37,968 nt of DNA, from the IMG/VR virus record IMGVR_UViG_3300023174_000013, positions 1 through 37,968 of that record. One strand, given 5' to 3'. This document shows positions 3,639-37,649 of this stretch, one piece after another. The notes beneath the pieces are model-generated. The model was not told where the DNA came from, did not search any database, and saw nothing but the letters and a program-made list of their open reading frames with translations. The position numbers and the translations under genes are program-made. Position 1 is the stretch's first letter. The number at the start of each line of letters is the position of its first letter. This stretch comes from a virus. Lineage: Duplodnaviria > Caudoviricetes.

Positions 3639-3741
3639 TCAAAGCAAAACAGTGCCGTTGTGCAGTACCATTCATTAGCCCAAACGACGAGGATGAATGG
3701 TGTTGGAAGTGCGGACTTCCTGTAGATAACGAGGAGACTTG

Positions 3742-5316
3742 ATGGCTGACCGTAAGATGCCAGACTTCGCCAATCCAGCGAATTACATTCATCCCGGCAA
3801 GAAGGACTCCCTTGCATCTTGGATGGCTTTCTTTGGCATGACCGAACAGGGGTCAGGCGATTACAACGGTCCTCGCGATTGGGCTAGAGCCGCAGCCGAT
3901 GAGCCGTTCCTAAATGCTTGTATCAAATTAAAGGCAATGAGCGCCGGTGCAGTTCCGTTGCGAGTGTATGTGCGCCAAGACCACAACCTTATTCCAGCAG
4001 ATTTGGCAAACGATGCGGATGCAGCCGAGTACCAAAAACTTCTAGACACAATTAACCCGTACAGCATGTCTGCGTCGGATTTCCGTGGCACGCTTGTTGC
4101 CAGCCTATCGGTGTATGGCGAAGCCTATGTACGCAAAGTGCGCGGTCGCCTTGGCGGTCCTCCTCAAGAGTTGTATCTCATCCGACCAATTGACATTAAG
4201 CCCCAAATGGGCAAAACATGGATTGAGTCATACGAGTACAACCCAGCGGGCGCAAAATCTCGCAATGCCGAAACCGAAATCATCCCTGCTAAAGACATTG
4301 TTGCTTTCAGACTGCCGGGTAACTTTGTTGACCCAACACGCGGTCTATCTCCGTTGTCATCCATCCGCAGAGAAGTAGAAGTTAGCGTGATGGCATCGGA
4401 GCATACAAATGCTCTGCTCCGAAATCTTGGCGTGCCAGTTGGGGCATGGGTAGCGCCAAAAGATAGCGACCTTACCGTGCAGGATCAGTCTGCCATTAAG
4501 AAAGTGCTTGCCGCATTGTCAGGACCAAAAAACGCAGGAAAGAGCGCAGTGTTGCCCGGCGGTCTTGAATGGCAACAGTTGGGCATCCCAGAACAAGACG
4601 CGCAGTACCTCAACGCCCGAAAAATTAGCCGCATGGCAATTGCGTCCGCCATGGGAATTCCATTGCAACTAGTTGGAGACGACGAGCATTCTGGCGTATA
4701 CCGCTCAGTGCGCGATGCAGAACAAGTGTTCTGGCGAAGGATGAAGAACGAGTTGGGATGGATTGCCGACATTCTTGATTCTTGGCTTACAACCGAGTTT
4801 GATAAAACTGGTCGCTTGACGGTTCAGTTTGATGTTTCCTCCATTGAGGCATTGCGACCTACGCCGCAAGAAGAACTAATGCTGTGGACGCAGTTGATGG
4901 ATCGCAGCGTGGTTACCCCAAACGAAGTTCGCGCTCATTTTGGGCTTGGCGCTCCGACTTCGTGGGGCGACACGCCGCTACTTAACGGTCAGCCAAAAGA
5001 AGGAGTTACGGGCAAAACCCCGCAGTCTATTACCGACATACCAGTCACTGGCACGGCAGTAGAAGAAGACCATGTGGTGGATGCGCCGCCAATTATGTCG
5101 TGGTTTGACCGAGAAACAAGGCTCTATGGTCGGCAAGAAGTGAAACAGTTCGTGCAGGGCGGATCACTAGATGCTGAGTCAATGGTAGGATTCCCCGTAA
5201 CCGAGACCGAGCAAAAGACTATTGAACTAGGGATTAAAAGGCGTTACAGTAGCAAGCAGATCGCTTACGGCGTTGAAGAAGACGGCTATAAAGGTTTGAG
5301 GGGAGTACAACCATGA
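3742..5316 (+). CDS. Portal protein, HK97 family, with C-terminal extension
   Basis: YGEAY, RGLSPL, NAGKSAVL, IASAMGIP, TPNEVR motifs; GAGGAG upstream; follows terL. Confidence 0.95.
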   Translation: MADRKMPDFANPANYIHPGKKDSLASWMAFFGMTEQGSGDYNGPRDWARAAADEPFLNACIKLKAMSAGAVPLRVYVRQDHNLIPADLANDADAAEYQKLLDTINPYSMSASDFRGTLVASLSVYGEAYVRKVRGRLGGPPQELYLIRPIDIKPQMGKTWIESYEYNPAGAKSRNAETEIIPAKDIVAFRLPGNFVDPTRGLSPLSSIRREVEVSVMASEHTNALLRNLGVPVGAWVAPKDSDLTVQDQSAIKKVLAALSGPKNAGKSAVLPGGLEWQQLGIPEQDAQYLNARKISRMAIASAMGIPLQLVGDDEHSGVYRSVRDAEQVFWRRMKNELGWIADILDSWLTTEFDKTGRLTVQFDVSSIEALRPTPQEELMLWTQLMDRSVVTPNEVRAHFGLGAPTSWGDTPLLNGQPKEGVTGKTPQSITDIPVTGTAVEEDHVVDAPPIMSWFDRETRLYGRQEVKQFVQGGSLDAESMVGFPVTETEQKTIELGIKRRYSSKQIAYGVEEDGYKGLRGVQP

Positions 5317-7433
5317 AGCACCTGAAGATTGCAGCAACCGCAGATGGTGGTCTTGTCATTGAGGGCTACGGCGTTCCCTTTGGCGGACCAATCAAAGGTC
5401 GCGACCTTCATGGGCAGTATTTCAGCAAGAAGACAGATTTTGCACTTGACTTGATTCCTGACGGGCAGCGACCGTTGCTGTATCAGCACGGTCTAGATTC
5501 GTCCGTAGACACGGCGGTCATTGGTCGCTGGGGCGTAAAGCGCATTGACGACGGCGGTGTATGGGTGCGCGCTCAGTTGGATGCCCGCTCCGAGTACATT
5601 AACGAGATTAAGGAACTTGTAGACAACGACGCGCTTGGCTTTTCCTCTGGAACCATGGGTCACCTTGTCAAAGTTGCGCCAAAAACTGGCGAAATTCTTA
5701 AGTGGGCGCTGGTTGAGTTGAGCCTTACCCCAAACCCAGCCAACCCAAATGCGTACATTGTTCGCGCAAATAAGTCCGCCGCAGCCCATGTAAAGTCTTT
5801 GTTCTCAACAAAGCACGGAGATCACGATCAGTCCGAGCACGGTAACTGGGCGCATAGTGGCGGTGGAGCAGATAACGGCGGCGACAAAGAAAAGTCTAAG
5901 CCGGGGTTTTACGGTTCAGATCATTGGGATAAGCCCGGAATGCCAAAAACCGTTGTCGTATCGGAAATGAGCCGCGACAAGTACGACCGAGCCATTCTTC
6001 CGATGCCAGACGAGTATAAAACTGATACATCCATGTCGGCTCAAGCATCAGGAAGTAGCGCATGGGCTGCTGTTACAATGGCAGATTCAAATGGCTGGCT
6101 GGACGAAAATGACGATGTTACAAAAGTGACATCGGGTCTAGACATTCCGTACATTCCCGCCGAAAACATTACAAGTCCAGAGTCGTGGCTCTTTGCCCTT
6201 GGGTTTGCAAACGGCACACTGAGTTTGGCTCCAAGCGAAGACGACAACGGTAATGTTATTGAAGCAATGAGCAGAAGCCGAGACAAAGAAGACTTTATTG
6301 CCCTGTCTGAAAGGCTGACTGATGTCAATTCCCATTCATCTGCGGCAACCTTTGACTCCCTTATTGACACTTGGGATGAATTTGGTCCGGGGGCAAGTAA
6401 GAAGATGCTCCGAGTCAAGCGTTCAACCAAGCATGGTGACCATGATCAGTCCGATCACGGGAACTGGGCGCACGGCGATGGTGGGGCGCGAGAATCTAAT
6501 CGCGTTGAGATGGAGCGACGCTCCACAGGGGCATGGCAAGAAAAGTTTGGCACAGTAGGAAACTACACTCCAAGTTCAAGAGTTGCTGGTATGGCGGCAA
6601 CCGTAGTTTCCGACGCAAAGAATGAGGCAGATCGTCGGTACGCGCAGGAGCGAGTTGATGCAGCCCTTCACATGGCTTCTCAATGGAATGCCAAAGGACC
6701 CGTCACAATGCCAAACGGTCAAGTGCCGTTGCACGGAAGGTCGGTAGAGGAAGAATTGGCTCGCAGGGTGGAATTTAGCCCTTCGGAAAGGGATAAAGAG
6801 TTCCATTTGAATTTGCTGGCAGACCTTAAAGGCGAAACGCCAGCCGCAGTTCAAGCAGAAATTGACATGGACAAGTTCAACGACTGGATGTCTGGCTACG
6901 ATGTGCCGGGCATGCCAAAGACTTTTCGCGTAAAGCGGTCAGTTAAACACGGCGACCACGACCAGTCCGAACACGGCAACTGGGCGCACGACGGCGGAAA
7001 CGATAAGACACAATCACAGGGGATGTTTGGAGACCGCCTAGACGAGTTAGATTTAAATGTGGCGACGGCGGTAGAAAGTTTCTTGACTTATTACACTCCT
7101 GCTCGCGACAGCATTGCAAGAGCCATCCTTCATTCAAGCAATGACCGTGAAACTGGTTTGTTGAGCCAAGCAAGTAACATGCTAGAAGAGGCAAGAACTG
7201 CTGCTGGGTTGCTACGCGGAGACGGTCCGGGGAAAGATTACAATGAATCCAAGCGAGAAAAATTGGTCCGAACGGTAGAAGATCGCTTGCAAGCCATGCG
7301 AAACAATTTGGATAAAGTGGCGGAACGACGCTCAGACTTTATGTACGACGCAGTTCTTAAAGAAGTTACGGCGGCTCAAGATTTCTTGACAAACGCAAGA
7401 ATTGACGCTGCGATTGCGGCAAAAAAGCCGTAA
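5313..7433 (+). CDS. HK97-type prohead protease (aa ~1-155) fused to three tagged modules of unknown function
   Basis: IEGYGVPF, LLYQHG (His), GFSSG (Ser), ELSLTPNPAN; then KHGDHDQSxHGNWAH at aa 167, 373 and 545. Confidence 0.92.
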   Translation: MKHLKIAATADGGLVIEGYGVPFGGPIKGRDLHGQYFSKKTDFALDLIPDGQRPLLYQHGLDSSVDTAVIGRWGVKRIDDGGVWVRAQLDARSEYINEIKELVDNDALGFSSGTMGHLVKVAPKTGEILKWALVELSLTPNPANPNAYIVRANKSAAAHVKSLFSTKHGDHDQSEHGNWAHSGGGADNGGDKEKSKPGFYGSDHWDKPGMPKTVVVSEMSRDKYDRAILPMPDEYKTDTSMSAQASGSSAWAAVTMADSNGWLDENDDVTKVTSGLDIPYIPAENITSPESWLFALGFANGTLSLAPSEDDNGNVIEAMSRSRDKEDFIALSERLTDVNSHSSAATFDSLIDTWDEFGPGASKKMLRVKRSTKHGDHDQSDHGNWAHGDGGARESNRVEMERRSTGAWQEKFGTVGNYTPSSRVAGMAATVVSDAKNEADRRYAQERVDAALHMASQWNAKGPVTMPNGQVPLHGRSVEEELARRVEFSPSERDKEFHLNLLADLKGETPAAVQAEIDMDKFNDWMSGYDVPGMPKTFRVKRSVKHGDHDQSEHGNWAHDGGNDKTQSQGMFGDRLDELDLNVATAVESFLTYYTPARDSIARAILHSSNDRETGLLSQASNMLEEARTAAGLLRGDGPGKDYNESKREKLVRTVEDRLQAMRNNLDKVAERRSDFMYDAVLKEVTAAQDFLTNARIDAAIAAKKP
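5811..5855 (+). repeat. Tag copy 1 (KHGDHDQSEHGNWAH)
   Basis: Read directly in the protease ORF. Confidence 0.97.
6429..6473 (+). repeat. Tag copy 2 (KHGDHDQSDHGNWAH)
   Basis: Read directly in the protease ORF. Confidence 0.97.
6945..6989 (+). repeat. Tag copy 3 (KHGDHDQSEHGNWAH)
   Basis: Read directly in the protease ORF. Confidence 0.97.
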
Positions 7434-7455
7434 CTGCGCGCCCCGAAACGGTCTC

Positions 7456-7496
7456 TGTTACACTCCTTGAGCCAGTTGCCTATGTGGGCAACTGGC
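7456..7496 (+). promoter_or_regulatory. Putative extended -10 promoter and 5' hairpin upstream of the capsid gene
   Basis: TG-T-TACACT at 7456-7464; GCCAGTTGCC/GGCAACTGGC 10-bp stem at 7471-7496 begins at the expected +1. Confidence 0.5.
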
Positions 7497-7612
7497 GCTT
7501 AGACGGAGAGACCGAAGACGCGAACGCTCACGCTGACGCTCCATCGGACGACCTGACGAAAGCATCGTTTAGGCAATGAACTTTCGGGTTCACAACTGAT
7601 AGGAGAATAATC

Positions 7613-8947
7613 GTGGCAGACAACGATTTCCTGTCGGAGAATGAGGTTGAGTCTCTCGTCGCTAAGGCTGTTACTAAGGCTGTAAAGAGCCTTAATACAG
7701 TTGACGAGGATGCCCGACCAACGGCTCCGACCAAGGCTGCGGGATTTAACCGTGGCTCTTATGGTCTTCCAAACCTTGGCGTTGCAGTTAAGTCCGCGTT
7801 CCGTGGGCAGACTGTTAACGGCGGTGAGTTTGAGCGAGACTTCTCACAGGCAGCAGCCGAAATTTTCGGCTACAAGGGCGCGGCTGGCGATGACTCGCTG
7901 ACTTCGCGCTCTATCGTTTGGGCTAAGACCCCAGAAGAGGCTCGCACTGTTCTTCACGCCATGGGCGAGGGGAAGCACGCGGCGCGAGTTGATTCAGCCA
8001 TTAAGGCTGCATCTGAGGGTACGACCACCGCTGGTGGATACCTCGTTCCCCCGCTCTACGCGCAGGATGCGTTCCAGTACGCTTTGGTTCCGAACATTGT
8101 GTTCCGCAACCTTCCCGGACTGACAACGATGCCTGTACGGACGAACCTTGTTTACCTGCCACGCGAAGACGCTCGTGCAGGTGGCGCAACGGCTGCTGAA
8201 GCCGGATCGCTCACCGCGCAGGATGTAACCTTCGCGCAGCAGTCAATTACCATCAAGAAGGCGTATGGCTATCGCGTATTCAGCAATGAATTGCTTGCCG
8301 ACGCTGATCCTTCGTGGAACGAGTTCATTACGAAGACCCTTCTTCGCGATGTGGCTCTTTTTGCGGATCAGCAGCATCTTGAGGGTACAGGTTCAAGCAA
8401 CGAAATTACGGGTCTTTCGGCAATCAGCGGCACGACTTCTGGTCCTTCACTTGGAGCCAACGGTCGCGCACTGACTTTTGATGACCTGTACGCTGCCATC
8501 TACAACCTGCGACTTGCCAATGTTGAGCCACAGAGCGCAACGGGCGCATGGATCATGCACCCGCGCACTCTCAACTCGCTGATGCAGTTGAAGGACAACA
8601 GCAATCAGTACATGCTCACGGCGGCTCAGGGCTACAACGCCCCGATGGCGCTGGCGGGCGGGTTTGCCAGCAGCAACGGACCAAAGGCTTCGTTGCTTGG
8701 TATTCCAGTGTATGTGTCCACGCAGATTGCAATTAACCGCACCACGGGTTCAAACAGCGACACTTCAAATGTGTACCTGCTTGATGCCTCTAAGGCGGTT
8801 CTGCTTGAGCGTCAGGGCATTGAACTGGCGTTTTCGGATCAGGTTGGTTTCGCGACCGACCAGTCCGCGTACCGAGCGATTGCGCGCCACGGCATTGCTG
8901 CCGTTCAGCCAACCGCTGTGGAAAAGATCACGGGTGTCCGCGCCTAA
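7613..8947 (+). CDS. Major capsid protein, HK97 fold, with ~131-aa N-terminal delta/scaffold region
   Basis: AGGYLVP, SNELLAD, WIMHP, LLGIPV motifs; AGGAG before GTG start. Confidence 0.97.
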   Translation: MADNDFLSENEVESLVAKAVTKAVKSLNTVDEDARPTAPTKAAGFNRGSYGLPNLGVAVKSAFRGQTVNGGEFERDFSQAAAEIFGYKGAAGDDSLTSRSIVWAKTPEEARTVLHAMGEGKHAARVDSAIKAASEGTTTAGGYLVPPLYAQDAFQYALVPNIVFRNLPGLTTMPVRTNLVYLPREDARAGGATAAEAGSLTAQDVTFAQQSITIKKAYGYRVFSNELLADADPSWNEFITKTLLRDVALFADQQHLEGTGSSNEITGLSAISGTTSGPSLGANGRALTFDDLYAAIYNLRLANVEPQSATGAWIMHPRTLNSLMQLKDNSNQYMLTAAQGYNAPMALAGGFASSNGPKASLLGIPVYVSTQIAINRTTGSNSDTSNVYLLDASKAVLLERQGIELAFSDQVGFATDQSAYRAIARHGIAAVQPTAVEKITGVRA

Positions 8948-8969
8948 TTAGGTACGGTTCTACCGTGAT

Positions 8970-9005
8970 GCAAGACCCTCAGGAGTTCGCTCCTGAGGGT
9001 CTTGC
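8970..9005 (+). terminator. Strong hairpin after the capsid gene (terminator or 3' stabiliser)
   Basis: Perfect 16-bp stem GCAAGACCCTCAGGAG/CTCCTGAGGGTCTTGC with TTCG loop; U-tract poor. Confidence 0.7.
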
Positions 9006-9007
9006 TC

Positions 9008-9013
9008 TATACT
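9008..9013 (+). promoter_or_regulatory. Putative -10 box for a leaderless transcript
   Basis: TATACT lies 6 nt before ATG 9020; no Shine-Dalgarno between. Confidence 0.5.
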
Positions 9014-9019
9014 GACCCC

Positions 9020-9661
9020 ATGGCAACTGCAATTGGCTCCTATGTCACCCTCGCCGTCGCTAAGGCGCGCCTTGGCATACCCTCCGCAGATACAACTGAC
9101 GACACGCTGCTCACGCGCCTGTGCGATCAGGTCAATGCGTACATTGAGTCCTACACGGGTACGGTTCTGGCTCCAATTGGCACGGCAACCTATACCTTTG
9201 ACGGTGACGAGCGAGTTAACGACCGTCAGTTACTCATTCCAAGGGGAGTTCGCACTATTACCCTGCTAGAGAACTCTGCATACACGGGCGGTCCGTACCA
9301 GACCATTCCTTCTTCTGACTATTTCTTGCGCCCTTCTAACGCCGACCTTAACCCCGGGTTCCCATTTACAGAGTTGGTTATGACTAATGTGCCAAGCGCG
9401 GGCAATCCGCTCCCAACCTTCAATCCCGGTTTGGATAACATCCGCATCACCGGCACTTGGGGCTGGGCTGCAATCCCGGATGAAATTAAAGAGGTTGCAG
9501 AGGTGATGCTCGTGCGCGCGTGGGCGGGGCGACAGGCTGGGCAGACAGATCAAATCGGGGTCAGCGAAGGGGGAATGCCAATCATTAGTCGCACAGTCTC
9601 CCTTCGCGACCGCGAAACCCTAAATAGGTTTAGACTAAAGCGACCCGACAGGATCGGCTAA
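9020..9661 (+). CDS. Head-tail connector/adaptor (HK97 gp6-like)
   Basis: YVTLAVAKARLG..DTTDDTLL...IESYTG, ITGTWGW..IPDEIK; follows capsid gene. Confidence 0.88.
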   Translation: MATAIGSYVTLAVAKARLGIPSADTTDDTLLTRLCDQVNAYIESYTGTVLAPIGTATYTFDGDERVNDRQLLIPRGVRTITLLENSAYTGGPYQTIPSSDYFLRPSNADLNPGFPFTELVMTNVPSAGNPLPTFNPGLDNIRITGTWGWAAIPDEIKEVAEVMLVRAWAGRQAGQTDQIGVSEGGMPIISRTVSLRDRETLNRFRLKRPDRIG

Positions 9662-9681
9662 AGAAAGTAGGAGGAGTTGAA

Positions 9682-9876
9682 ATGGCAACCAAGAAGCCAA
9701 TGTCATGGAACCCAGACGAGGTAATCAAGCGACCAGTTGACCCAGAGATTGCCGCCGAGCGCGCCAAGATTGGGCTGGGTAACGAGGAGCCGTCGCTTCC
9801 GCTTACTGAGGAGCAGAAGCGCGCACGCGCAGATCGCTTTGTCTGGAAGCCGGGAGACCTCCGCCGAGTTCGCTAA
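9682..9876 (+). CDS. Small hypothetical protein (64 aa), first gene of the effector cassette
   Basis: Strong AGGAGG RBS; TAATG coupling to the next gene; ends DRFVWKPGDLRRVR. Confidence 0.75.
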   Translation: MATKKPMSWNPDEVIKRPVDPEIAAERAKIGLGNEEPSLPLTEEQKRARADRFVWKPGDLRRVR

Positions 9877-10643
9877 TGCCCCGCCTGTTGGCGGTAGTCC
9901 GAGCGCGCAAGCACGCTGATCATGATCAGTCCGATCATGGGAATTGGGCTACGGGCAGGTTTGCTCAAGGCACACCAAGAGGCGGAAATGCAGTTACTGT
10001 TCTAGAGGCTATTCGCATGCAGTCTCCAACGGACAAGTACAAATCCAAAGTCTACGAAGCAGCAAATAAATTGTTTCCTACTGAAAAAGAAGGCAATGTC
10101 GCGCCGGTAGGTCCTCAAAGAAAAGATTTTGCTACTTATGAGGAATACGCCAAGGCGTTCAAGGAGTATGACAAAGCGTTTGATAAATACGCTCAGACCG
10201 CGATGGAGTATTTGGCTTCAGACACTGGTAGAGAACTGCTAGACGGCTCACTTAAGGGTGTAAAATCCTATGTCCAGCAAATTTGTACATCTGACTGGTT
10301 TATAGAAGCCTTTGGAACAGCATCACAAATGGGCGGAGTTCCGCCAGTCAAAGTAACAACGGCTGGGGACGAATCTGGTTCTTTCCGCATGAAAGCCGAC
10401 CGATTTGGAACTGTTTCAGAGACAAGTTTGCGATTTAACAAAGCGGCATTTACAAGAGAGCCAACACTACTGCATGAGATTGCTCACTTTGCAACTGCTG
10501 CCAGCGCAACGGCAACATACGAGCCGCACGGGGTAGAGTATGCAAAGAACCTTGTATTCATTTGCGAACAAGTAGTTGGTTCTGAATTTGCAGAACTAAT
10601 GCGTACTTCGCTTATAGAGGAGGGCGTGCCAATTGACAACTGA
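9876..10643 (+). CDS. Tagged zincin-like (HExxH) putative metallopeptidase
   Basis: Tag KHADHDQSDHGNWA at aa 12; TLLHEIAH followed by PHGVEY. Confidence 0.8.
   Translation: MPRLLAVVRARKHADHDQSDHGNWATGRFAQGTPRGGNAVTVLEAIRMQSPTDKYKSKVYEAANKLFPTEKEGNVAPVGPQRKDFATYEEYAKAFKEYDKAFDKYAQTAMEYLASDTGRELLDGSLKGVKSYVQQICTSDWFIEAFGTASQMGGVPPVKVTTAGDESGSFRMKADRFGTVSETSLRFNKAAFTREPTLLHEIAHFATAASATATYEPHGVEYAKNLVFICEQVVGSEFAELMRTSLIEEGVPIDN
9909..9950 (+). repeat. Tag copy 4 (KHADHDQSDHGNWA)
   Basis: Read directly in ORF 9876..10643. Confidence 0.97.
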
Positions 10644-13600
10644 CAAAGACGAACTGTTTGAGTGCGTTATTCCTTTGCCCGACGCGCTGATCCCTGAACA
10701 AATGGATGAGCCAACCAAGTCTCTTAAGCACGGTGACCATGATCAGTCCGACCATGGAAACTGGGCGCACGGTGGCGGAGATGGAACCAAGGAAAACCCC
10801 ATCAGGACTAGCAGCGTTGAAGAGGCAGCGCGTGCGCTTGGGGAGGGCAAGCATGTTGAGTTGCAAAGCCCAGATCAGGTAGCAACCCTCCTAGATCGGC
10901 TTAACGAGTTGGCAAAAGAGGCGGAGGCGGCTGGCACAAAAGCAAAAAACATTGACCTGTGCAATGTGACAGTTCCGGGCACAAACTTGTTCTGCGTTGA
11001 GTCCAAAGGCATCCCTAGGGTAGAAATGCCACAACTAAAAGGAATCCCAAACAGCGGCAGCCCAGCCTCAGACTTGCCAGCAGACAAGCGTGGCGAGGTG
11101 GACATCACCGAGGCGTATCTTGAGCAACTACGGTCATCTGGAGTTTCCTTGACCGAAGATGAGGCGCTTGCCAGCCATCTAAAGGCGACACAAAATGAGT
11201 TGAATGGCGGCAAAGTTGCAGGGATTATGGCTGCCGCACGCGCTGGACAACTTGACCTGAACCAACCAATTGTGGTGTCTAGGGATGGCTACATCGTAGA
11301 CGGTCATCACCGATGGGCAGCAAAAGTTGCCCTTGAGCATGACGGCATTGACGACCCAGAGACCGACATGAAGATTCCTGTAGTCCGCGTAGACCAAGAC
11401 ATTCTTGACATCCTTGAGTCATCCAAGCAGTTCGCTGCCGACATGGGATTGCCACAAGTTGCAGTCAAGTCTCTAAAGCACGGAGACCATGACCAGTCTG
11501 ACCATGGGAACTGGGCAACTGGCGGCGCTGACCATCAGTACACAGGAAAGCCACGATCCGCCGCCTCTCGCGCGCGCATGAACGAGCATACAGACCGTTA
11601 TGGAGACCCAGAGCGCAGGGAGTCAGGGCGGCGTTCAGGCAGCAGAAACCTTGGTCGCGAAGTGACAGAAATGGAAATTGTTGCGCTGGAGTCTTACAAA
11701 GGCGGAGGGTACGGGGAAATAAACCGCTTCTTGCGAGGAACACAAGAAGGAGACGATTGGACAAAAGACCGAATTGACGCGGTAAAGTCATTGGCGCTTC
11801 CGACTACTGAACCGATGACGGTAACGCGCATGATGCCGTTGTTTGCCGTTGAGGGGATTGCCGCTGGGCAAATTTATGAAGACAAAGGCTTTATGTCAAC
11901 GGGAAAGGGAGACCACCCTGCACAATTCTTTCATGGATACCCAGTACAAATGCAAATTGAGGTTCCTGCTGGAACTCCCGTCGTTGACTTTGACAATTTC
12001 TCTGGCTTAGATGGGTGGGGCAACATTGAGCGCGAAGTGACGCTAATGCCAAACACCCAATTAGTTATTGACCGAGTTGAGCAGCGGGATTGGAACCGAG
12101 ACTTTGGACCAACGGAAACAGACGGTCTCAAAGTCTACGCTCACCTTGTTTCGTCAACCAAATCCCTTAAACACGGAGATCACGACCAAACAGACCACGG
12201 CAACTGGGCGCACGGAAACGCCGCCATTTCGGCACTTTCTGCAACAGACAAAAAGGAAGGAGAGAAGTACCTAATTGAAAGGTATCCGCCAGATGATCTC
12301 AACCGCGACTCTGACCTAGGAAAGAAATTAGGTTTGACAAGTTTGGAGTGGGCAGCCGCAGATCACTACCGAACTCAGGGCTACATGGAAATAAACAACC
12401 TTCTTCGTGGCGTTGGAAGCGATTGGGGCATGGAGTTTGCCCCGGCAGACATTCGCTCAGTTCAACTTCTGGATGAAGCAATGGATAAAAGTACAATCAA
12501 AAACTTTGAGACGGTGTATCGCGGAACAAGCATGCTTGCCAGCAAAATGGACACTTTCTTGTCTAGTTTAGAAGTAGGAGGCGTGTACACCGACCCATCC
12601 TTTGTGTCTACTTCTAGAGGCAAAGACATTGCCGAGTCGTTTGCAACAGACCGACCCCCTGATGAGGCAAAAGAAAACAGGGCAAGTTTAATGTGGGAAA
12701 TTGTGTTGCCGCCGGGAGCCTCGGCTTTGGACATGCAATCCCTGTTTCCTAGTTTCGGGTCTAACGAAGAAGAAGTTCTTCTGGACAGAGACACTCATCT
12801 ACGCATTCTTGCAAAGGAGAGTGCTGGCGTAACACTTGATGGCGAGCCAGTGTACCGAATCAAAGCAATTGCAATTCCAACGGCAACCAAGTCTCTCAAG
12901 CATGGCGATCATGACCAGTCCGATCATGGGAGTTGGGCGCACGGGTCAGCAAATAGACCGACGCTATCTAACGAAGATAAGAACAAAGCCGAAGCAGCCC
13001 TGACGAAGAATAATGGGGGTTGGGTTGGCGGAAATTATCAACATGCGTTCCAGTTGACTGACCTAGAGGTTGCAGCCGCCCAGCACTATCGCGCATTTGG
13101 CTTTGCCCAGATGAACAGGATGATGCGGGGGCAAGAAAGCCTTACTGGGCTTGCATTTGTTCCAGAAATTGTTCGTGGCGCAGAGTTGCTAGAAGACGCA
13201 ATGTCAAAAGCATCTTTGCAAAAAAATACAACTGTGTACCGGGGCATGCACCTTCTATCTGATGAAGCCCAGAAGTTCTTGGCTGGCATTAAATCGGGAG
13301 ATGTATACACCGACCCAGCGTTTACCTCCACATCCAAATCGGAAACAATTGCCATGAAATTTGCCACGGAGAGATACTCAGAGGAGCGACAAGAAAACAG
13401 GACGGGTATTGTTTGGCAAATCTTTGCTCCAAGTGGCACTTCGGCTTTGGACTTTGACAAATTGTTTGCCGGGACCACAAGTCAAGAACAAGAAATTCTG
13501 CTTGCGCCAAACACCCATTTCAAGATTCTCGGCACACAACTAGACAGTTACACCTCTACGGGTGAGCCAATAATCCGAGTCATGGCTACCGTCATCCCAA

Positions 13601-16275
13601 CGGCAACCAAGTCCATGAAGCACGGCGACCATGATCAGTCCGACCATGGCAACTGGGCGGACGGGATAGTTCCCCTTGCAAAGACCCCCATTGAGCAAGT
13701 AGATGCGCTTCGGTCATGGTCCTCTAACTCCTACAACATGATTAACGGAGCCTTGCGTAACCCAGACACACTTGGTGCTCAAGAGCGCGGTGGCTTGCGC
13801 GAGCCAGTTCAAAAGATGCAAGACCAGTTAGATAAGTTGTTTGCGGGTGTTCCCAAGACTACAAAAGAGATGACGGTGTATCGCGGCGCAACTGGCGACT
13901 GGGTAAAGAATTTAGTTGACCAATACGAAGCCACAATTGAAAAAGGGCGTGTGGGGTACAGGGAGACTGGGGTAATGCCGCAGTTTAGCCAAGACCGCTT
14001 TACCGACCAAGGGTTTACCTCAACTACGCCAGACAAAGACATTGCGCTTCGTTTCTCTGGTACTGGCTTAAGCGGTGGTGGGTACTATACGGGCGAAGGC
14101 AGGGCAATCTTTGAGATCAACATTCCAGAGGGAAGCAGCGTTGTAAATGTTGAGGAGTTTGCCAACGAGTTTGGTGGGTTTGCCAAATTTGCAGCAGAGG
14201 AGAAAGAGTACCTTCTCCCGCGCGGGAGTACCTTTGAAGTAGCCGATGTGACCCCAAGTGAGGAGCAGTTCGGCAGTCAAGGACCTTTGTACTACACCAT
14301 TAGGCTAGACCTTGTTCCGTCGTCAACTAAATCCGTCAAGCACGCCGACCACGACCAGTCCGATCACGGCAACTGGGCGGACGGCGGTAGAAATGGGCAG
14401 AGCCACAATGTTGTTCAACTTGGGCATCCGTACCCAACTAATCCCCCGCACGGATCAACCGGGTACAGAGAGCCAATGTCATCTGTTGCCCTACCAAATG
14501 GGCGGAGCGTGGAGATTCAATCTGGGGGAGATGCCGTATCGGGAGGTTACAACGGGTATTTCGTTATGCACAACAAAGCAAACGGTGAGCGCATGGGGTA
14601 TCTGGACTACCAGTCAAGCGGAAGCGGGGATGATAGGCGCGTACAAATTGCTATGGTTGAAACCACCGAAGGTTATCGTGGGCAAGGGGTTGCAACAGCA
14701 TTGCTCGCTCGCTTGGTTGCTGAGTTCCCAGAAACAAAAATTGAACCGGGATCAACAACTGAAGATGGCGGTCGCTGGTGGCAAAGCGTGAAGCCATTAT
14801 TGCCAGCGTCCTCTAAGTCTTACAAGCACGCGGACCATGACCAGTCCGAACATGGTAACTGGGCAGACGGGGAAAGGTACACAGCAGAGGCAAGAAACAA
14901 CGCAGAACGGGCTTTAACTCATTACAGCATTGACGGATACCAAAGAATCAACTCTTACTTGCGTAAAACAGACATGAGTCAAGATGAATGGCAAACACAG
15001 GAGTTTGATCCAAAGCCAGCAATTAAAGAAATAGATTCTTTGTTTGAGTCCGCAGCGCCGCTCAAAGAGCCTGTCACCGTATTTCGCGGCATAGACAGCG
15101 AAGTAGCAGAAAAGATGACTTGGAAGCAAGGGGATACCTATACCGATGCCGCCTTTATGTCTACTTCACTGCGCGAGGAAGTGTCCGAACGGTTTACTGA
15201 CTATGGCGGCAAGGGAGCCTACATTATGCAAATTGAAGTTCCTGCTGGCACAACTGCGCTGACCCCAAGCATGTTTGCAACATTGGTGGACGAGGAAGAA
15301 GTCCTCCTTAACAGAGGAACAACACTGCAAATTACAGGAACGGCGTTGAAAGACAATTTTAATTACATCTACGCAACAGTTGTTCCGACAACTAAGTCTC
15401 TAAAGCATGGCGACCACGACCAAACAGATCACGGCAACTGGGCAAGGGGTTTTGATGCGCCAAGTTCAACAGAAATTAGTCGCAGCCCAAAGGAATCTCG
15501 CACAACAACTCCTTTGTGGTATGTGGAACGGGATGCTGGAGTTGGATCGGATAGACAAAGCCAGTTAAACAACATGCAATTTGGCACACAGCGAACCCTG
15601 CACGAGGCGTTAGATGCGTATACCCATTGGAAAACCGACCAATGGTCAGATGACGGCAGTTCAATTGCGTTTCACGCTGCATTAAACGAGCGATTGCGCG
15701 AAGGAATGAATCGCGGCAAAGCAGTTGAAGCAACCGCAGCGGAATTTGCCGAAGAAGGAGACGACCAGTTAGGTAAAACGCTTTATTCTGGTTTTATGCA
15801 TTTGGACGCTTTAACAAGAGATAGCGTAATGAAAGAAGACACTGTTGTTACCAGAGCCATGTCTCCAGTGTTTGATCGTCAAGAGTTGGAAGCAGCCATT
15901 TCAGGCGGCTCTTTGAACTTGTACGGTCAAGAGATCACTGCTGGCGCGGTATTTTCAGACGCTGGCTTTGTGAGTACATCATTGGACACTACGGGGTCAT
16001 CTACTCAGTACTTTGGGCAAAACTGGGAAGGGGCAGAGGGTTTGGAAGATTCTCAAATTCCAACGAGCGTTCGGTGGATGATTACCGTTCCTGCTGGTGC
16101 TCCAGCCGCTGATTTGCGTTCTGTTGGGTTCTCTAGCCAACACGGTGAGCAGGAAGTAATTTTGCCAAGAAACACACATTTTCAAGTGGACTCATACGAT
16201 GTCAAAATGCCGCCAACTGGCGGAGGGGCAGCATCCGTAACCATTCGGGCAACCGTGATCCCAACACACAAGTAA
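10633..16275 (+). CDS. 1880-aa tagged polyprotein: ParB/Srx-like domain, six VIP2/C2-like ADP-ribosyltransferase domains, one GNAT domain
   Basis: Eight tags (K codons at 10726, 11476, 12169, 12898, 13618, 14338, 14824, 15403); IVDGHHRW; six sets of V-x-R, FxST and ExE; YRGQGVATALL; GAGGAGG 9 nt before TTG. Confidence 0.93.
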   Translation: MTTDKDELFECVIPLPDALIPEQMDEPTKSLKHGDHDQSDHGNWAHGGGDGTKENPIRTSSVEEAARALGEGKHVELQSPDQVATLLDRLNELAKEAEAAGTKAKNIDLCNVTVPGTNLFCVESKGIPRVEMPQLKGIPNSGSPASDLPADKRGEVDITEAYLEQLRSSGVSLTEDEALASHLKATQNELNGGKVAGIMAAARAGQLDLNQPIVVSRDGYIVDGHHRWAAKVALEHDGIDDPETDMKIPVVRVDQDILDILESSKQFAADMGLPQVAVKSLKHGDHDQSDHGNWATGGADHQYTGKPRSAASRARMNEHTDRYGDPERRESGRRSGSRNLGREVTEMEIVALESYKGGGYGEINRFLRGTQEGDDWTKDRIDAVKSLALPTTEPMTVTRMMPLFAVEGIAAGQIYEDKGFMSTGKGDHPAQFFHGYPVQMQIEVPAGTPVVDFDNFSGLDGWGNIEREVTLMPNTQLVIDRVEQRDWNRDFGPTETDGLKVYAHLVSSTKSLKHGDHDQTDHGNWAHGNAAISALSATDKKEGEKYLIERYPPDDLNRDSDLGKKLGLTSLEWAAADHYRTQGYMEINNLLRGVGSDWGMEFAPADIRSVQLLDEAMDKSTIKNFETVYRGTSMLASKMDTFLSSLEVGGVYTDPSFVSTSRGKDIAESFATDRPPDEAKENRASLMWEIVLPPGASALDMQSLFPSFGSNEEEVLLDRDTHLRILAKESAGVTLDGEPVYRIKAIAIPTATKSLKHGDHDQSDHGSWAHGSANRPTLSNEDKNKAEAALTKNNGGWVGGNYQHAFQLTDLEVAAAQHYRAFGFAQMNRMMRGQESLTGLAFVPEIVRGAELLEDAMSKASLQKNTTVYRGMHLLSDEAQKFLAGIKSGDVYTDPAFTSTSKSETIAMKFATERYSEERQENRTGIVWQIFAPSGTSALDFDKLFAGTTSQEQEILLAPNTHFKILGTQLDSYTSTGEPIIRVMATVIPTATKSMKHGDHDQSDHGNWADGIVPLAKTPIEQVDALRSWSSNSYNMINGALRNPDTLGAQERGGLREPVQKMQDQLDKLFAGVPKTTKEMTVYRGATGDWVKNLVDQYEATIEKGRVGYRETGVMPQFSQDRFTDQGFTSTTPDKDIALRFSGTGLSGGGYYTGEGRAIFEINIPEGSSVVNVEEFANEFGGFAKFAAEEKEYLLPRGSTFEVADVTPSEEQFGSQGPLYYTIRLDLVPSSTKSVKHADHDQSDHGNWADGGRNGQSHNVVQLGHPYPTNPPHGSTGYREPMSSVALPNGRSVEIQSGGDAVSGGYNGYFVMHNKANGERMGYLDYQSSGSGDDRRVQIAMVETTEGYRGQGVATALLARLVAEFPETKIEPGSTTEDGGRWWQSVKPLLPASSKSYKHADHDQSEHGNWADGERYTAEARNNAERALTHYSIDGYQRINSYLRKTDMSQDEWQTQEFDPKPAIKEIDSLFESAAPLKEPVTVFRGIDSEVAEKMTWKQGDTYTDAAFMSTSLREEVSERFTDYGGKGAYIMQIEVPAGTTALTPSMFATLVDEEEVLLNRGTTLQITGTALKDNFNYIYATVVPTTKSLKHGDHDQTDHGNWARGFDAPSSTEISRSPKESRTTTPLWYVERDAGVGSDRQSQLNNMQFGTQRTLHEALDAYTHWKTDQWSDDGSSIAFHAALNERLREGMNRGKAVEATAAEFAEEGDDQLGKTLYSGFMHLDALTRDSVMKEDTVVTRAMSPVFDRQELEAAISGGSLNLYGQEITAGAVFSDAGFVSTSLDTTGSSTQYFGQNWEGAEGLEDSQIPTSVRWMITVPAGAPAADLRSVGFSSQHGEQEVILPRNTHFQVDSYDVKMPPTGGGAASVTIRATVIPTHK
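10726..15444 (+). repeat. Tag copies 5-12 dispersed through the polyprotein, each preceded by (T/V/S)-K-S-(L/M/V/Y)
   Basis: Spacings 750, 693, 729, 720, 720, 486, 579 nt, all in frame. Confidence 0.97.
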
Positions 16276-25914: not shown

Positions 25915-26267
25915 TGGCAATTGACAATCGCTACGACTTAGAAATTAAGCAGGGAGCAACATTCTCATTGACTGCTACTTGGAAAGATTCTAGTGGCACG
26001 GCTATTAACTTGACTGGATACACGGCACGAATGCAGGTACGGTCTAGTTATGATTCAACTTCAACAATCATTAGCCTGACAAGCAGCGCAGGAATTACTC
26101 TTGGAGGCGTTGCTGGAACAATTTCCATTACGGTATCCGCAACAACCACGGCGGCACTAACAGCACCATGGTCAGGTGTTTGGGATTTGGAATTGGTGTC
26201 TGGTGGCGGAGTTGTAACTAGGCTTCTGGAAGGAGTTGTAAGCGTAACGCCAGAGGTAAGCCGATGA
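25914..26267 (+). CDS. Small beta-rich virion protein (fibre adaptor-like)
   Basis: IKQGATF...[13 protein letters not shown]...WDLELV..RLLEG; precedes the collagen fibre gene. Confidence 0.75.
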
Positions 26268-28174
26268 GCGTAACCGTCAACCAGACAAAGCAGACGGTCA
26301 CGGTCACCCAAGGCGAAGAAACGGTCACAGTTTCGCCAGTAACTCAAACGATAGAGGTTGCTGCCGAAGGACCACAGGGCGCAACCGTCGTCAGCGTCGC
26401 TGTCGGCTCTACGACCACAGGTGCGGCAGGATCGTCAGCATCGGTCAGCAACTCAGGCTCATCAACCGCTGCCGTTTTGAACTTCACCATTCCGCAGGGC
26501 ATCCAAGGCGCAACAGGATCAACTGGTGCCACTGGAGCCACAGGGGCGACTGGAGCCACAGGGGCGACTGGCGCGAAAGGTGATAAGGGCGACACTGGCG
26601 CGACAGGATCAGCCGCTACGGTGGCTGCTGGTACGACGACGACAGGCGCAGCAGGAACTTCCGCAACGGTCACCAATAGCGGAACATCAAGTGCAGCCGT
26701 GTTTAACTTCACTATCCCTCAAGGGATTCAGGGTGCGACTGGCGCTACGGGATCAACTGGCGCTACAGGAGCGACTGGCGCGACAGGTGCGAAAGGTGAT
26801 AAGGGCGACACTGGCAACGCAGGTGCGGCTGCGACTATTGCCGTCGGATCAACCACGACAGGTGCGGCTGGAACTTCTGCCAGCGTTAGTAACAGCGGAA
26901 CATCTAGCGCAGCCGTCTTTGACTTCACAATCCCACAAGGAGCCAAAGGCGACACCGGCTCTACTGGAGCGACAGGTGCCACGGGCGCGCAAGGCATTCA
27001 GGGCATTCAGGGTATTCAGGGAGCCACAGGTGCGACAGGCGCAAAGGGCGATACAGGAGCAACTGGCGCACAAGGACCATCTGGCGTAATCGCAGTCAAT
27101 GCACCACTAACCAACGCTGGCACAAGCACCAGCGCCAACCTCAGCGTCAGCGCAGGATCAACGAGCGCGGCTGGCGTGCTGCAACTCACGGATTCAATCA
27201 GCAGCACCAGCACGACGACCGCAGCAACACCAAACAGCGTTTACACACTAGGCGGCATCGTTGATGGCGTAATTGGCAGCGTTGACAGCCTCACTACTAA
27301 TGTCAATGGTAGGGTTTCGCTTACCACTGTCACAACCAAAGGCGATCTTATTGTCGCTTCTGGTAATGCCGCAGTTGCTCGGCTTGGCGTTGGCACCAAC
27401 AACCATGTTTTGACGGCAGATTCAACTGCTCCAAACGGCATCAAGTGGGCTGCCCAAAGCGGCGGCGGTGTTTCCAGCGTCACTGGCACTGCTCCAATCG
27501 TTTCTAGCGGCGGCACAACGCCAGCCATCAGCGTCACCGCCGCATCAACCTCCGCATCTGGCGTGGTGCAACTCACGGATTCAGTCAGCAGCACCAGCAC
27601 GACGACGGCGGCAACGCCAAATTCCGTATTGCAGTCAATGAAGAACTACCAAGCAAGCGCATACAACAGCACCACGCGAATTGCTAATTTGCCACTATAC
27701 ATGGTGACCACAACAACATCTCTGGCTTCTGGATTTGTGGTCTTTACTAGGTTTATTCCGGAAAGAAACTTCACGGTGTCTAATGTTATTTGGTGCAGTG
27801 CGACGACCGCTTCAGCAAGTTTGACGCTTTGCAGGTTCGGAATTTACACAAGAAGCGGCACTACAATGACTCTTGTTGCTCGTACAGCATCGGATACGAC
27901 CATTTTCAACACCACCAATACGCGCTACACTCGTGCGCTTGATACGACAGGTGGTTATCCAGCAACCTACGACTTTGTTGCAGGGTCAGAATACTTCACT
28001 GCCGTAATTCAGGTTGGATCAACTCCTGCAAACCTCAACAGTTGTCTTGCTGGAACTGCGTCAGCGAACGCTATCAACGGCACGCATACATTCACTACTT
28101 CAGGTGCTACAGATTTGCCAACTTCTGCAACACCAACCCAGCAAAACTTTCGCGCATACGCTGAGGTGTCCTGA
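26264..28174 (+). CDS. Collagen-like tail fibre
   Basis: Gly-X-Y runs ([14 protein letters not shown]); three TTTGAAG...FTIPQG blocks; two [23 protein letters not shown] repeats. Confidence 0.9.
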
Positions 28175-34718: not shown

Positions 34719-34726
34719 TTGGAGTT

Positions 34727-34766
34727 CCGTTTGCGCGGGTTGCCAGTGCGGCAGCCCGCGCAACGG
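34727..34766 (+). other. GC-rich intergenic hairpin before the methyltransferase RBS
   Basis: TTGCGCGGGTTGCC (34731-34744) pairs with GGCAGCCCGCGCAA (34750-34763), one G-U pair. Confidence 0.6.
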
Positions 34767-34778
34767 TTGGAGGAAGGC

Positions 34779-35705
34779 ATGATTCATTATTCTGACGATT
34801 CGCTCACTATCAGAGTTGGCGATTGCCGCGCCGAGATGCAGCAGATGGATGCGGAAAGCGTTCAAACTTGCGTGACCTCGCCGCCTTATTGGGGCTTGCG
34901 AGATTATGGCGACGACAACCAGTTGGGGTTAGAGAAAACCCCAGAGGCGTATGTTGCCAACATGGTTGATGTGTTCCGAGAAGTGAAGCGGGTGCTAAAA
35001 CATGACGGCACTTTGTGGCTCAATTTAGGCGATTCTTATTCAGGAAGCGGTAAAGGTCCGGCTGGAAATTTGGGAAAAACTCACAACGAGCGCCACATGG
35101 AAGGCAAGCATTCCGCAATCATCCCTGATGGACTCAAGCCTAAAGACCTTGTTGGTATTCCTTGGCGAGTAGCCTTTGCTTTGCAAGCAGACGGCTGGTA
35201 TTTGCGCTCCGACATCATTTGGCATAAACCAAATCCAATGCCCGAAAGCGTTACCGACCGCCCAACAAAAGCGCATGAGTACATGTTCCTGTTGGCAAAG
35301 AACAAAAGTTATTACTACGACCACGAAGCAATTAAGCAGCCAGTCAAGCAGGATTGGGGTACGAGAGACCGAACCGACGGCAAGTATCACAACGAGGGAA
35401 GCGGACTTGCTCCTCATAGCGGGCTTGAGAAGAGTTATGAGTCAGCCAACAAGCGTTCCGTGTGGACGGTTCCAACAAAGCCGTATGCAGGTGCTCACTT
35501 TGCCGTATTTCCGCCTGAACTCATTGAGCCGTGCATTCTCGCTGGCGCTCCGCAAGGCGGTGTAGTGCTTGATCCGTTTGGCGGAAGCGGCACAACTGGC
35601 ATGGTGGCAAACAAGTTGGGTCGCAAAGCGGTGCTCATTGAGTTAAACCCGAATTATGTGGAGCAGATTAAGGAACGAACTTCCCAAGCGGCTCTTGGGC
35701 TGTAG
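34779..35705 (+). CDS. Orphan DNA methyltransferase, N4-C/N6-A family (beta motif order)
   Basis: VTSPPYW catalytic motif near N-terminus, VLDPFGGSGTT SAM motif near C-terminus; GGAGGAAGG RBS. Confidence 0.95.
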   Translation: MIHYSDDSLTIRVGDCRAEMQQMDAESVQTCVTSPPYWGLRDYGDDNQLGLEKTPEAYVANMVDVFREVKRVLKHDGTLWLNLGDSYSGSGKGPAGNLGKTHNERHMEGKHSAIIPDGLKPKDLVGIPWRVAFALQADGWYLRSDIIWHKPNPMPESVTDRPTKAHEYMFLLAKNKSYYYDHEAIKQPVKQDWGTRDRTDGKYHNEGSGLAPHSGLEKSYESANKRSVWTVPTKPYAGAHFAVFPPELIEPCILAGAPQGGVVLDPFGGSGTTGMVANKLGRKAVLIELNPNYVEQIKERTSQAALGL

Positions 35706-36911: not shown

Positions 36912-37236
36912 TGAAGAGCGTAAGCATCGGGGGCGGAAAGCAAACAATGCGGGTAAGCAGTACGAGCGGGATGTCGCCTCTATGTTTCCGAACGGCAAGC
37001 GCGTGGGCATGTACGGCGGTCCGATAGATGTAACTGCCGATCATGGGATTGTGGCGCAGGTCAAGGTGGGCGGAGCCTTCCCAGAGGTATTGAATCGCTA
37101 CCTAGACAAAACTATGGCGGCTGCTAAGGCGGACGAGACTCCAATCGTGGTGGTGGGCAACCGCCCCGGCGTGGGGGTCAAGCGAACGCATTTGGTCATC
37201 CTCACCCTTGAGGACTTTGTGAGGCTGCTGAAATGA
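36904..37236 (+). CDS. Holliday-junction resolvase-like PD-(D/E)XK nuclease
   Basis: GKQYERDVA...PIDV...AQVK...PIVVV...LEDFVRLL. Confidence 0.75.
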   Translation: MVDEERKHRGRKANNAGKQYERDVASMFPNGKRVGMYGGPIDVTADHGIVAQVKVGGAFPEVLNRYLDKTMAAAKADETPIVVVGNRPGVGVKRTHLVILTLEDFVRLLK

Positions 37237-37649
37237 TTGCGGTACTGCTGGCGTTTAGCATGGCGCTGAACGCTACCCTGCTCCCAGAACCAGCAGTCGG
37301 AAAAGCGACATGGTACGGCTATTCTGGGCTTCAGCAGTGCTACGACGGAATGCCGCGTACCTGCACGCCGTACCGAACAAAGGCGCAAGGGGGTTGGAAT
37401 GATGAGGTGGTCTACTACTGCGCGTTGCCGCATTTCAAGTGGCACAGCAAGCCGTTCTGGGTCAAAGTCACCAGAGTGGAAACAGGCGTGTCGGCTTTCT
37501 GCCTTGTGCGGGATGAATGCGGCTGCGTTGGTGGTGGGATCATTGACCTAAGCCCAGCCGTGTTTCGCAAATTGCGAAGCCTGAAGGCTGGTATTGTAAA
37601 AGTCCGCATTGAGCGGTGGATTGAGCCACAAGGAGGGCATAGAAGATGA
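37233..37649 (+). CDS. Secreted RlpA-like double-psi beta-barrel protein
   Basis: Hydrophobic N-terminus; GKATWY, VRDEC, IIDLSPAVF..L...GIVKV. Confidence 0.8.
   Translation: MIAVLLAFSMALNATLLPEPAVGKATWYGYSGLQQCYDGMPRTCTPYRTKAQGGWNDEVVYYCALPHFKWHSKPFWVKVTRVETGVSAFCLVRDECGCVGGGIIDLSPAVFRKLRSLKAGIVKVRIERWIEPQGGHRR

Follow-up and report, generated by a model that had tools for sequence, protein, structure and literature searches.

To our knowledge, loading signals for the cargo of phage heads are known only from T4 and P1. The HK97 protease gp4 is also said to have a C-terminal encapsidation tail, and a protein fused to this protease can reportedly ride into the prohead (Duda, Oh and Hendrix 2013). 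In T4, the internal proteins IPI-III and the ADP-ribosyltransferase Alt share a short capsid targeting sequence and are processed by the prohead protease gp21 at its own motif, with ejection alongside the DNA predicted (PMC7411985 and PMC12991175, in the parts available); this signal precedes the cut, occurs once per protein, and is removed by cleavage after Glu (available parts of PMC7411985). Prohead proteases reportedly differ in specificity, with T4 gp21 and SPN3US gp245 both cutting after Glu (PMC7411985 and PMC12991175, in the same parts). In P1, a 30-residue N-terminal stretch of DarB suffices to load a reporter into the head, and the available parts of PMC9024508 report no consensus among the Dar proteins; the stretch is not a repeated post-cut motif. 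Effector domains are likewise found on head proteins as MuF polymorphic toxins, or as cargo fused to portals or maturation proteases (PMC3482391, available in part), and head-packaged ADP-ribosyltransferases (ARTs) are covered by an ART survey (PMC9503650) and by PMC3482391, each available in part.

Among the closest described systems are the phage-type polyvalent proteins (Iyer, Burroughs, Anand, de Souza and Aravind 2017, PMC5512222): large, multi-domain products of late genes that combine ART, GNAT, ParB-like and zincin domains, and are predicted to be packaged and injected. The available parts of that account ascribe processing mainly to zincins, place assemblin-like peptidases at C termini, and describe neither an inter-domain tag nor a per-module cut site; those of PMC7150772 and PMC11965321 contain nothing on tags. 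The processing of polyvalent proteins, and the choice and ejection of head cargo, are open problems in the field.

The window, meaning the whole stretch of DNA analysed, is a complete record of an uncultured HK97-type phage, of 37,968 bases and with direct terminal repeats. Profile searches place a head gene set (terminase, portal, S78-type protease, capsid and adaptor) upstream of a polyprotein whose eight modules are one ParB-like domain, six ARTs and one GNAT, within the 2-15 domains of disparate activity per chain that characterise polyvalent proteins, and similarly located among the virion genes of a portal-terminase phage. The wider domain set (zincin, ART, GNAT and a ParB-like domain, the last being DdrB-like in polyvalent proteins) is also typical of polyvalent proteins, the ARTs belonging here to PF03496 (Alt/VIP2) rather than ART-PolyVal; tagged relatives carry ART-PolyVal, InPase, Nudix and MuF domains. 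In contrast to the described polyvalent proteins, the assemblin-like protease is N-terminal, and every domain has its own predicted cut site and tag. Similarly, the protease and capsid are of the same families as in HK97, but natural cargo modules lie behind the protease domain, each following a predicted site and tag. As in T4, a short peptide is common to cargo, here predicted head cargo, that includes ADP-ribosyltransferases; unlike the T4 signal, this peptide comes after the predicted cut, and would therefore stay on each released enzyme, is repeated within polyproteins, and follows a P1 residue that varies by genome. We regard the locus as encoding probable head cargo of the phage polyvalent type, with an apparently undescribed, putatively retained tag, and a predicted cut residue that varies in step with the protease of each genome. 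A removable signal of the T4 type was rejected, as the predicted P1 residue stands immediately ahead of the conserved peptide.

Elsewhere in the window are a collagen-repeat tail fibre (26264-28174), an N6/N4 DNA methyltransferase (34719-35705) and a DPBB-type lytic transglycosylase (37233-37649). No integrase was found among the 28 window proteins scanned, nor any match to PF04233, the MuF family, which is present in some tagged relatives; promoters and terminators were no more numerous than chance would give.

Twelve tagged modules in three late genes

The 14-residue tag reported in the first-pass annotation is present in twelve copies, all in frame on the + strand of three late genes (5313-7433, 706 aa; 9876-10643, 255 aa; and 10633-16275, 1880 aa), and each agreeing with the proposed consensus at 12-14 of 14 residues. 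The next best six-frame match to this consensus reaches 6/14, and the best in 15 triplet shuffles 5-7/14. Every copy does open a domain-sized module of 162-290 aa, the lengths being 206, 172 and 162 aa in the first gene, 244 aa in the second, and 250, 231, 243, 240, 240, 162, 193 and 290 aa in the third. Tagged cargo amounts to 7,908 bases, in keeping with the original estimate of about 8 kb, and to 20.8% of 37,968, the genome size of 37.8 kb given earlier being a small slip; a 38-kb phage devotes one fifth of its genome to a shuffled arsenal that includes six ADP-ribosyltransferases.

The first tagged gene begins with an S78/HK97-type prohead protease domain (5313..5810, +), the predicted cutter after Lys, which lies between an untagged HK97-type portal (3739..5316, +; PF04860 E 2e-51, TIGR01537 above cut-off) and an HK97-type major capsid protein (7613..8947, +; TIGR01554 above cut-off). 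The protease matches phrog_80 at E 3e-9, and PF04586 at E 1e-3, just below cut-off; with its scores beneath the curated cut-offs, the HK97 S78 arrangement is recognised through the portal-protease-capsid order and the delta-domain capsid. His59 and a Ser near 111 sit in the expected motifs, and are presumably the catalytic residues. Behind this domain follow three units on the + strand, each opened by a predicted P1 Lys and a tag: the first at 5811..5852 with module 5814-6431, the second at 6429..6470 with the predicted helical module 6432-6947, and the third at 6945..6986 with module 6948-7430. Module 1 had no Pfam match and no usable Atlas match, and the Pfam matches of module 3 were all far below cut-off. 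The model of module 2, built from an 11-row alignment, had a mean pLDDT of 63 (around 40 in the tag region and mostly 67-86 in the core), and no fold match in the PDB or BFVD.

The second gene is a stand-alone zincin (HExxH; 9876..10643, +), in which an 11-residue leader precedes the predicted P1 Lys and tag 4 (9909-9950); the module is identified by TIGR04338 at E 3e-11, below cut-off, and by a SprT-like match at E 5e-3. Adjoining this gene is an untagged ORF of 64 aa (9682-9876, +) with a strong ribosome site and no family match. The polyprotein (10633..16275, +) starts at a TTG after an AGGAGG site, with a 31-residue leader, conserved among relatives, ahead of its eight tagged modules. Tag 5 heads a ParB/Srx-like module (10726..11475, +; phrog_2859 E 2e-22, ParB-like phrog_1033 E 9e-4), and tags 6-9 (11476, 12169, 12898 and 13618) each head a VIP2/Alt-type ADP-ribosyltransferase (11476..14337, +; PF03496 E 9e-11 to 6e-18 each). 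Tag 10 is followed by a GNAT acetyltransferase (14338..14823, +; PF00583 E 1e-5, above cut-off), and tags 11-12 (14824 and 15403) by one further VIP2/Alt-type ADP-ribosyltransferase each (14824..16275, +; PF03496 E 1e-23 and 4e-11). All six ADP-ribosyltransferases have intact R, S-T and E-x-E motifs, making them R-S-E type, and the remaining cargo under the twelve tags consists of the ParB-like, GNAT and zincin modules, and three modules without an assigned family. Cut before each His, the predicted products are acidic, with masses of 17-31 kDa. Folded alone, the tag had a pLDDT of 72, a pTM of 0.15 and no secondary structure element, and the models predict that it lacks structure and stands apart from the cargo.

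Conservation was proposed to act on the peptide, and mainly it does, as only 85 of 924 residue pairs differ between copies. There is nevertheless a trace of the DNA: same-residue codon pairs are identical in 414 of 773 cases (0.536), against 0.443 expected from codon usage, and hence some shared ancestry at the DNA level persists among the copies, with exact runs of up to 23 bases. This slight excess, together with shuffling at the joints (101 modules of close relatives form 52 clusters, their order and gene varying, with the tag as the module boundary), would be expected of a DNA homology patch for module shuffling, encoding a peptide without function. Yet nearly half of the synonymous codons differ when 91% of residues match, the median exact run is 11 bases, and the peptide is conserved among unrelated phages, making that explanation most improbable. 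A repeat of purely DNA-level significance was rejected on this synonymous divergence and the conservation of the peptide across phages.

The residue before the tag and the capsid maturation site

The leading K had been counted as a residue of the tag; it is instead the predicted P1 of the protease, and changes by genome, with the tag itself starting at the His. Family-wide, the pre-tag residues seen are K, R, E, F, Y, A or L. In two scans with patterns that did not ask for K, it preceded the first His in 541/554 copies, and a P1-blind metagenome scan found 114 copies with K (71), R (14), E (7), A (7), F (5), L (3), Y (2) or another residue (5). What is constant is the residue within a protein: across the library, 144 of the 149 multi-copy proteins have one uniform pre-tag residue, whereas 1,000 shuffles averaged 64.6 uniform proteins and never exceeded 77, and uniformity extends to 25/27 of the non-K multi-copy proteins. 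Scans forcing a non-K copy recovered genomes with R, E, F, Y or A, in which 17 of 18 multi-copy contigs were uniform and one mixed Y and F, single-copy and off-strand matches (e.g. L309, L319, L274 and L277) being left out of this count.

This residue mostly agrees with the one predicted for capsid maturation. In the window, the delta-domain junction is predicted after Lys131 (codon at 8003). The pre-tag residue equalled the delta-junction residue, read by eye, in 22 of 24 scorable HK97-type contigs, from 27 capsid rows after leaving out L009, L032 (truncated) and L287 (no tag); the 22 comprise 13 K contigs of one lineage and 9 R contigs, and related contigs are not independent. The capsid site agreed with the pre-tag residue outside the HK97 type as well, in two E genomes, two Y genomes and one A genome whose capsids belong to other families. 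The two mismatches are L317, with its tag after A and a K junction, and L044, with its tag after K and an R junction, a contig that looks chimeric. In L044:1-1150, a tagged ART frame opens mid-domain right behind the head-tail gene of a different, R-type phage, and the contig is probably a chimeric assembly. In L333 (F) and L300 (Y), the capsid junction is A-type, but F-S/A sites are found in the capsid leaders. When head-protein sets were scored by dipeptides without alignment, the tag's residue took the top rank of 12 in 12/22 sets, with weak per-set p-values.

Two K/R sites in the capsid leader switch jointly in 38 of 39 scorable homologues (window 7613-8947; P0152-P0193), supporting these as protease cut sites, and suggesting repeated shifts of protease specificity within one capsid family. 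The four examined loci of R-type relatives of this capsid were all without the tag. Within the polyprotein, 15/17 candidate K sites fall at module joints. The His at P1' of the tag joints differs from the A/S at capsid sites, and each of the eight polyprotein joints carries another site, K-S, three residues further upstream, resembling the capsid's own sites; hence the exact bond is uncertain, cutting being probable either at the tag or three residues before it. Overall, across many unrelated phages, the pre-tag residue tracks the predicted site of each genome's own maturation protease.

Such tracking bears on whether the modules might instead be processed after injection, with the tagged zincin or a protease of the host, rather than the prohead protease, doing the cutting. 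The zincin gene adjoins the polyprotein, and zincin-like processing of polyvalent proteins has been proposed (Iyer et al. 2017, PMC5512222, in the parts available). However, the pre-tag residue follows the predicted capsid maturation site of each genome, and the zincin is itself a tagged module, such that processing of this kind is very unlikely.

Spread and exchange of tags

The family core is H-x(2 or 4)-H-D/N-Q-x-x-H-G/A, and DNA-pattern scans detected the tag in many IMG/VR contigs and metagenome contigs. Searched against 1.84 billion representatives, a profile of 82 copies, built from K-rich input, matched 1,509 protein clusters at E<=0.001, of which 400 remained at the stricter E<=1e-10; library-wide matches have a median tag-to-tag spacing of 233 residues. 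All 245 tags on the 53 contigs that include a capsid gene share the strand of that gene, and tags were found on portal, MuF and prohead-protease fusions, as well as on stand-alone genes. From this placement and these fusions, we infer that the tag marks head-module cargo, as the first-pass annotation had supposed. Of the outcomes which that annotation had named as counting against it, the first two were not observed: rather than non-virion or non-phage proteins, the contexts are phage head modules; and rather than an already characterised repeat, no match was obtained in Pfam, NCBIfam, PHROGs or the PDB, short motifs being near the sensitivity limit of such scans. The motif is apparently undescribed: the annotation knew of no account of it, and a full-text literature search covering few subscription papers gave no description.

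Two short tag queries had no match in 50,697 records of cultured phages, and the single match of a third query, in Piku, lacks the motif. Nine more cultured head regions, picked because their protease or ART was similar, were free of the HDQ tag. The cultured ART fusions DrManhattan gp4, Neferthena gp5 and A1432 were without tags of these types. A GTDB scan returned 10 stretches at 9 loci, of which three are clear tags and the remainder looks like chance; the clear ones are on small MAG contigs, two labelled Actinomycetes/Actinomycetota and one an actinobacterium.

The proposed H-x2-H-x4-H metal-binding spacing and Trp do not hold across the family. Across 564 distinct copies, the first His-His gap was 2 in 325, 4 in 225 and 5-6 in 14, and Trp was found in 17/75 non-K copies, against 464/489 of K-type, counts that are too high because several scans demanded Trp in the pattern. 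Neither a fixed metal spacing nor Trp could be kept as a feature of the whole family, as both vary and the tags are interchangeable.

This interchange is evident among close relatives, in which homologous modules have a different tag, of YSEDQERDDHGRF type. In one close relative, K|YSEDQERDDHGRF occupies most joints and the HDQ tag only two; among the relatives, one chain combines both tags, and four module clusters carry either the HDQ or the sister tag. The sister tag, K|YSEDQ(E/A)RD..GRF, is at the same joints in L001:2016-6506 (-), L064:2530-5151 (-) and L346:937-2925 (+). Other tags (F/D..PDQPRD..G.W, NP.HD..G.F and GGPGSG) follow the same residue as HDQ in the same protein or genome (P0077, P0078 and P0087; L307:946-1029, L248:6632-6715 and L321:13310-13393). 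Therefore a fixed metal geometry and Trp are not the whole story. L346 also includes one putative ferritin/Dps-like module without a tag after a K site, so that a tag is not obligatory for cargo. In L346:937-2925 and L343:1163-3631, tagged modules separate the protease domain from a helical tail at the C-terminus.

A narrower role for metal would be bridging, in which the His exposed at the N-terminus by the cut would coordinate Zn, Ni or Cu together with the two His further along, cross-linking the cargo into an internal body through tags that partner each other rather than a capsid protein. The three His and the Gln are invariant in the 82-row alignment, partly by selection, and a mechanism without a partner would account for use across unrelated heads. 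Against this, the first His-His gap ranges from 2 to 6, and interchangeable tags (YSEDQ.., PDQPRD.. and GGPGSG) have one His or none, leaving metal bridging quite unlikely. The heads concerned are diverse: the tag serves at least five unrelated capsid families, making any single conserved protein pocket for so short a motif hard to name. A complex prediction of the capsid (51-row alignment) with the tag (82 rows), run without controls, scored 0.00, which counts neither for nor against a contact.

Cultured examples of a sister tag come from cluster H mycobacteriophages, in which the PRD type is at the natural N-terminus of a very basic protein (L367:6001-6774, Mycobacterium phage Damien gp10; L368:6001-6711; and L370:1366-1971), for which the annotation "capsid maturation protease" looks doubtful. 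Patience gp18 is a virion protein (Table 1 of PMC4324244, available in part), and is without the sister tag that its Damien homologue has.

These proteins are informative about another possibility, that the tag is a prime-side recognition element, or exosite ligand, for efficient cutting, with loading left to carriers or leaders. Such a function would fit a tag that always abuts P1, with one per cut, in genomes where every protease seen is of a head maturation type (phrog_80, 328/976, 859, 9427, 15531 or XkdF). But the sister tag of Damien gp10 has no cut site ahead of it, the tag is absent from capsid and scaffold sites, the tag is found behind seven different P1 residues, and K in turn precedes any of three unrelated tags. 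An exosite role is accordingly unlikely.

A proposed route for the cargo

The sequences themselves show the repeated tags, the domains of the cargo and their place in a late operon, as well as the covariation of P1, the shuffling of modules and the exchange of tags. Taking these together, we lean towards the tag being a retained handle on cargo modules that are cut in the prohead and packed into the head. The precursors of the three late genes would enter the prohead, and packaging of the modules into the head is very likely. There, the S78 protease would cut after Lys, yielding twelve proteins of 17-31 kDa, each with the tag as its new N-terminus. The tag would act as a per-module handle for the head interior, aiding the loading of the carrier-less precursors (those of the zincin gene and the polyprotein), and would then hold or escort each freed enzyme until ejection with the DNA. 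Two features of its placement modestly favour this role as a handle: tags are within 60 residues of the first Met in 248 of 383 tagged ORFs, as in stand-alone genes with hardly more than a leader besides the tag, which points to loading; and every module has a tag of its own even when it is already fused to a portal, MuF or protease carrier, pointing to a function once the cut is made. Once ejected, the ADP-ribosyltransferases and the ParB-like, GNAT and zincin proteins would target the bacterial host at an early stage of infection, in the manner of T4 Alt.

More tentatively, the combination of a phage's own maturation-protease site with one of a few interchangeable tags might be a general, portable code in tailed phages, in which the tag, once made N-terminal, is an ejection signal with a receptor common to unrelated heads, such as the portal channel, the tail tube or the DNA. 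Were this code true, sequence alone would suffice to recognise injected effectors in well over 1,000 protein families, and the tag would supply polyvalent proteins with the delivery signal they have been missing. The motif supplies a predicted cut position, a predicted mature N-terminus and a control in the genome-specific P1 switch for hundreds of proteins, and singles out uncharacterised domains as candidates for anti-host or counter-defence effectors of early infection.

The family includes tagged chains of 3,023-7,059 residues (P0001, P0005 and P0056), P0001 having 10 tags. The portal of the archaeal Nitrososphaera provirus Pro-Nvie1 (L369:3798-5210) ends in an NPYHD-type tag after Glu, and the protease-capsid fusion of this provirus has Glu-type junctions.
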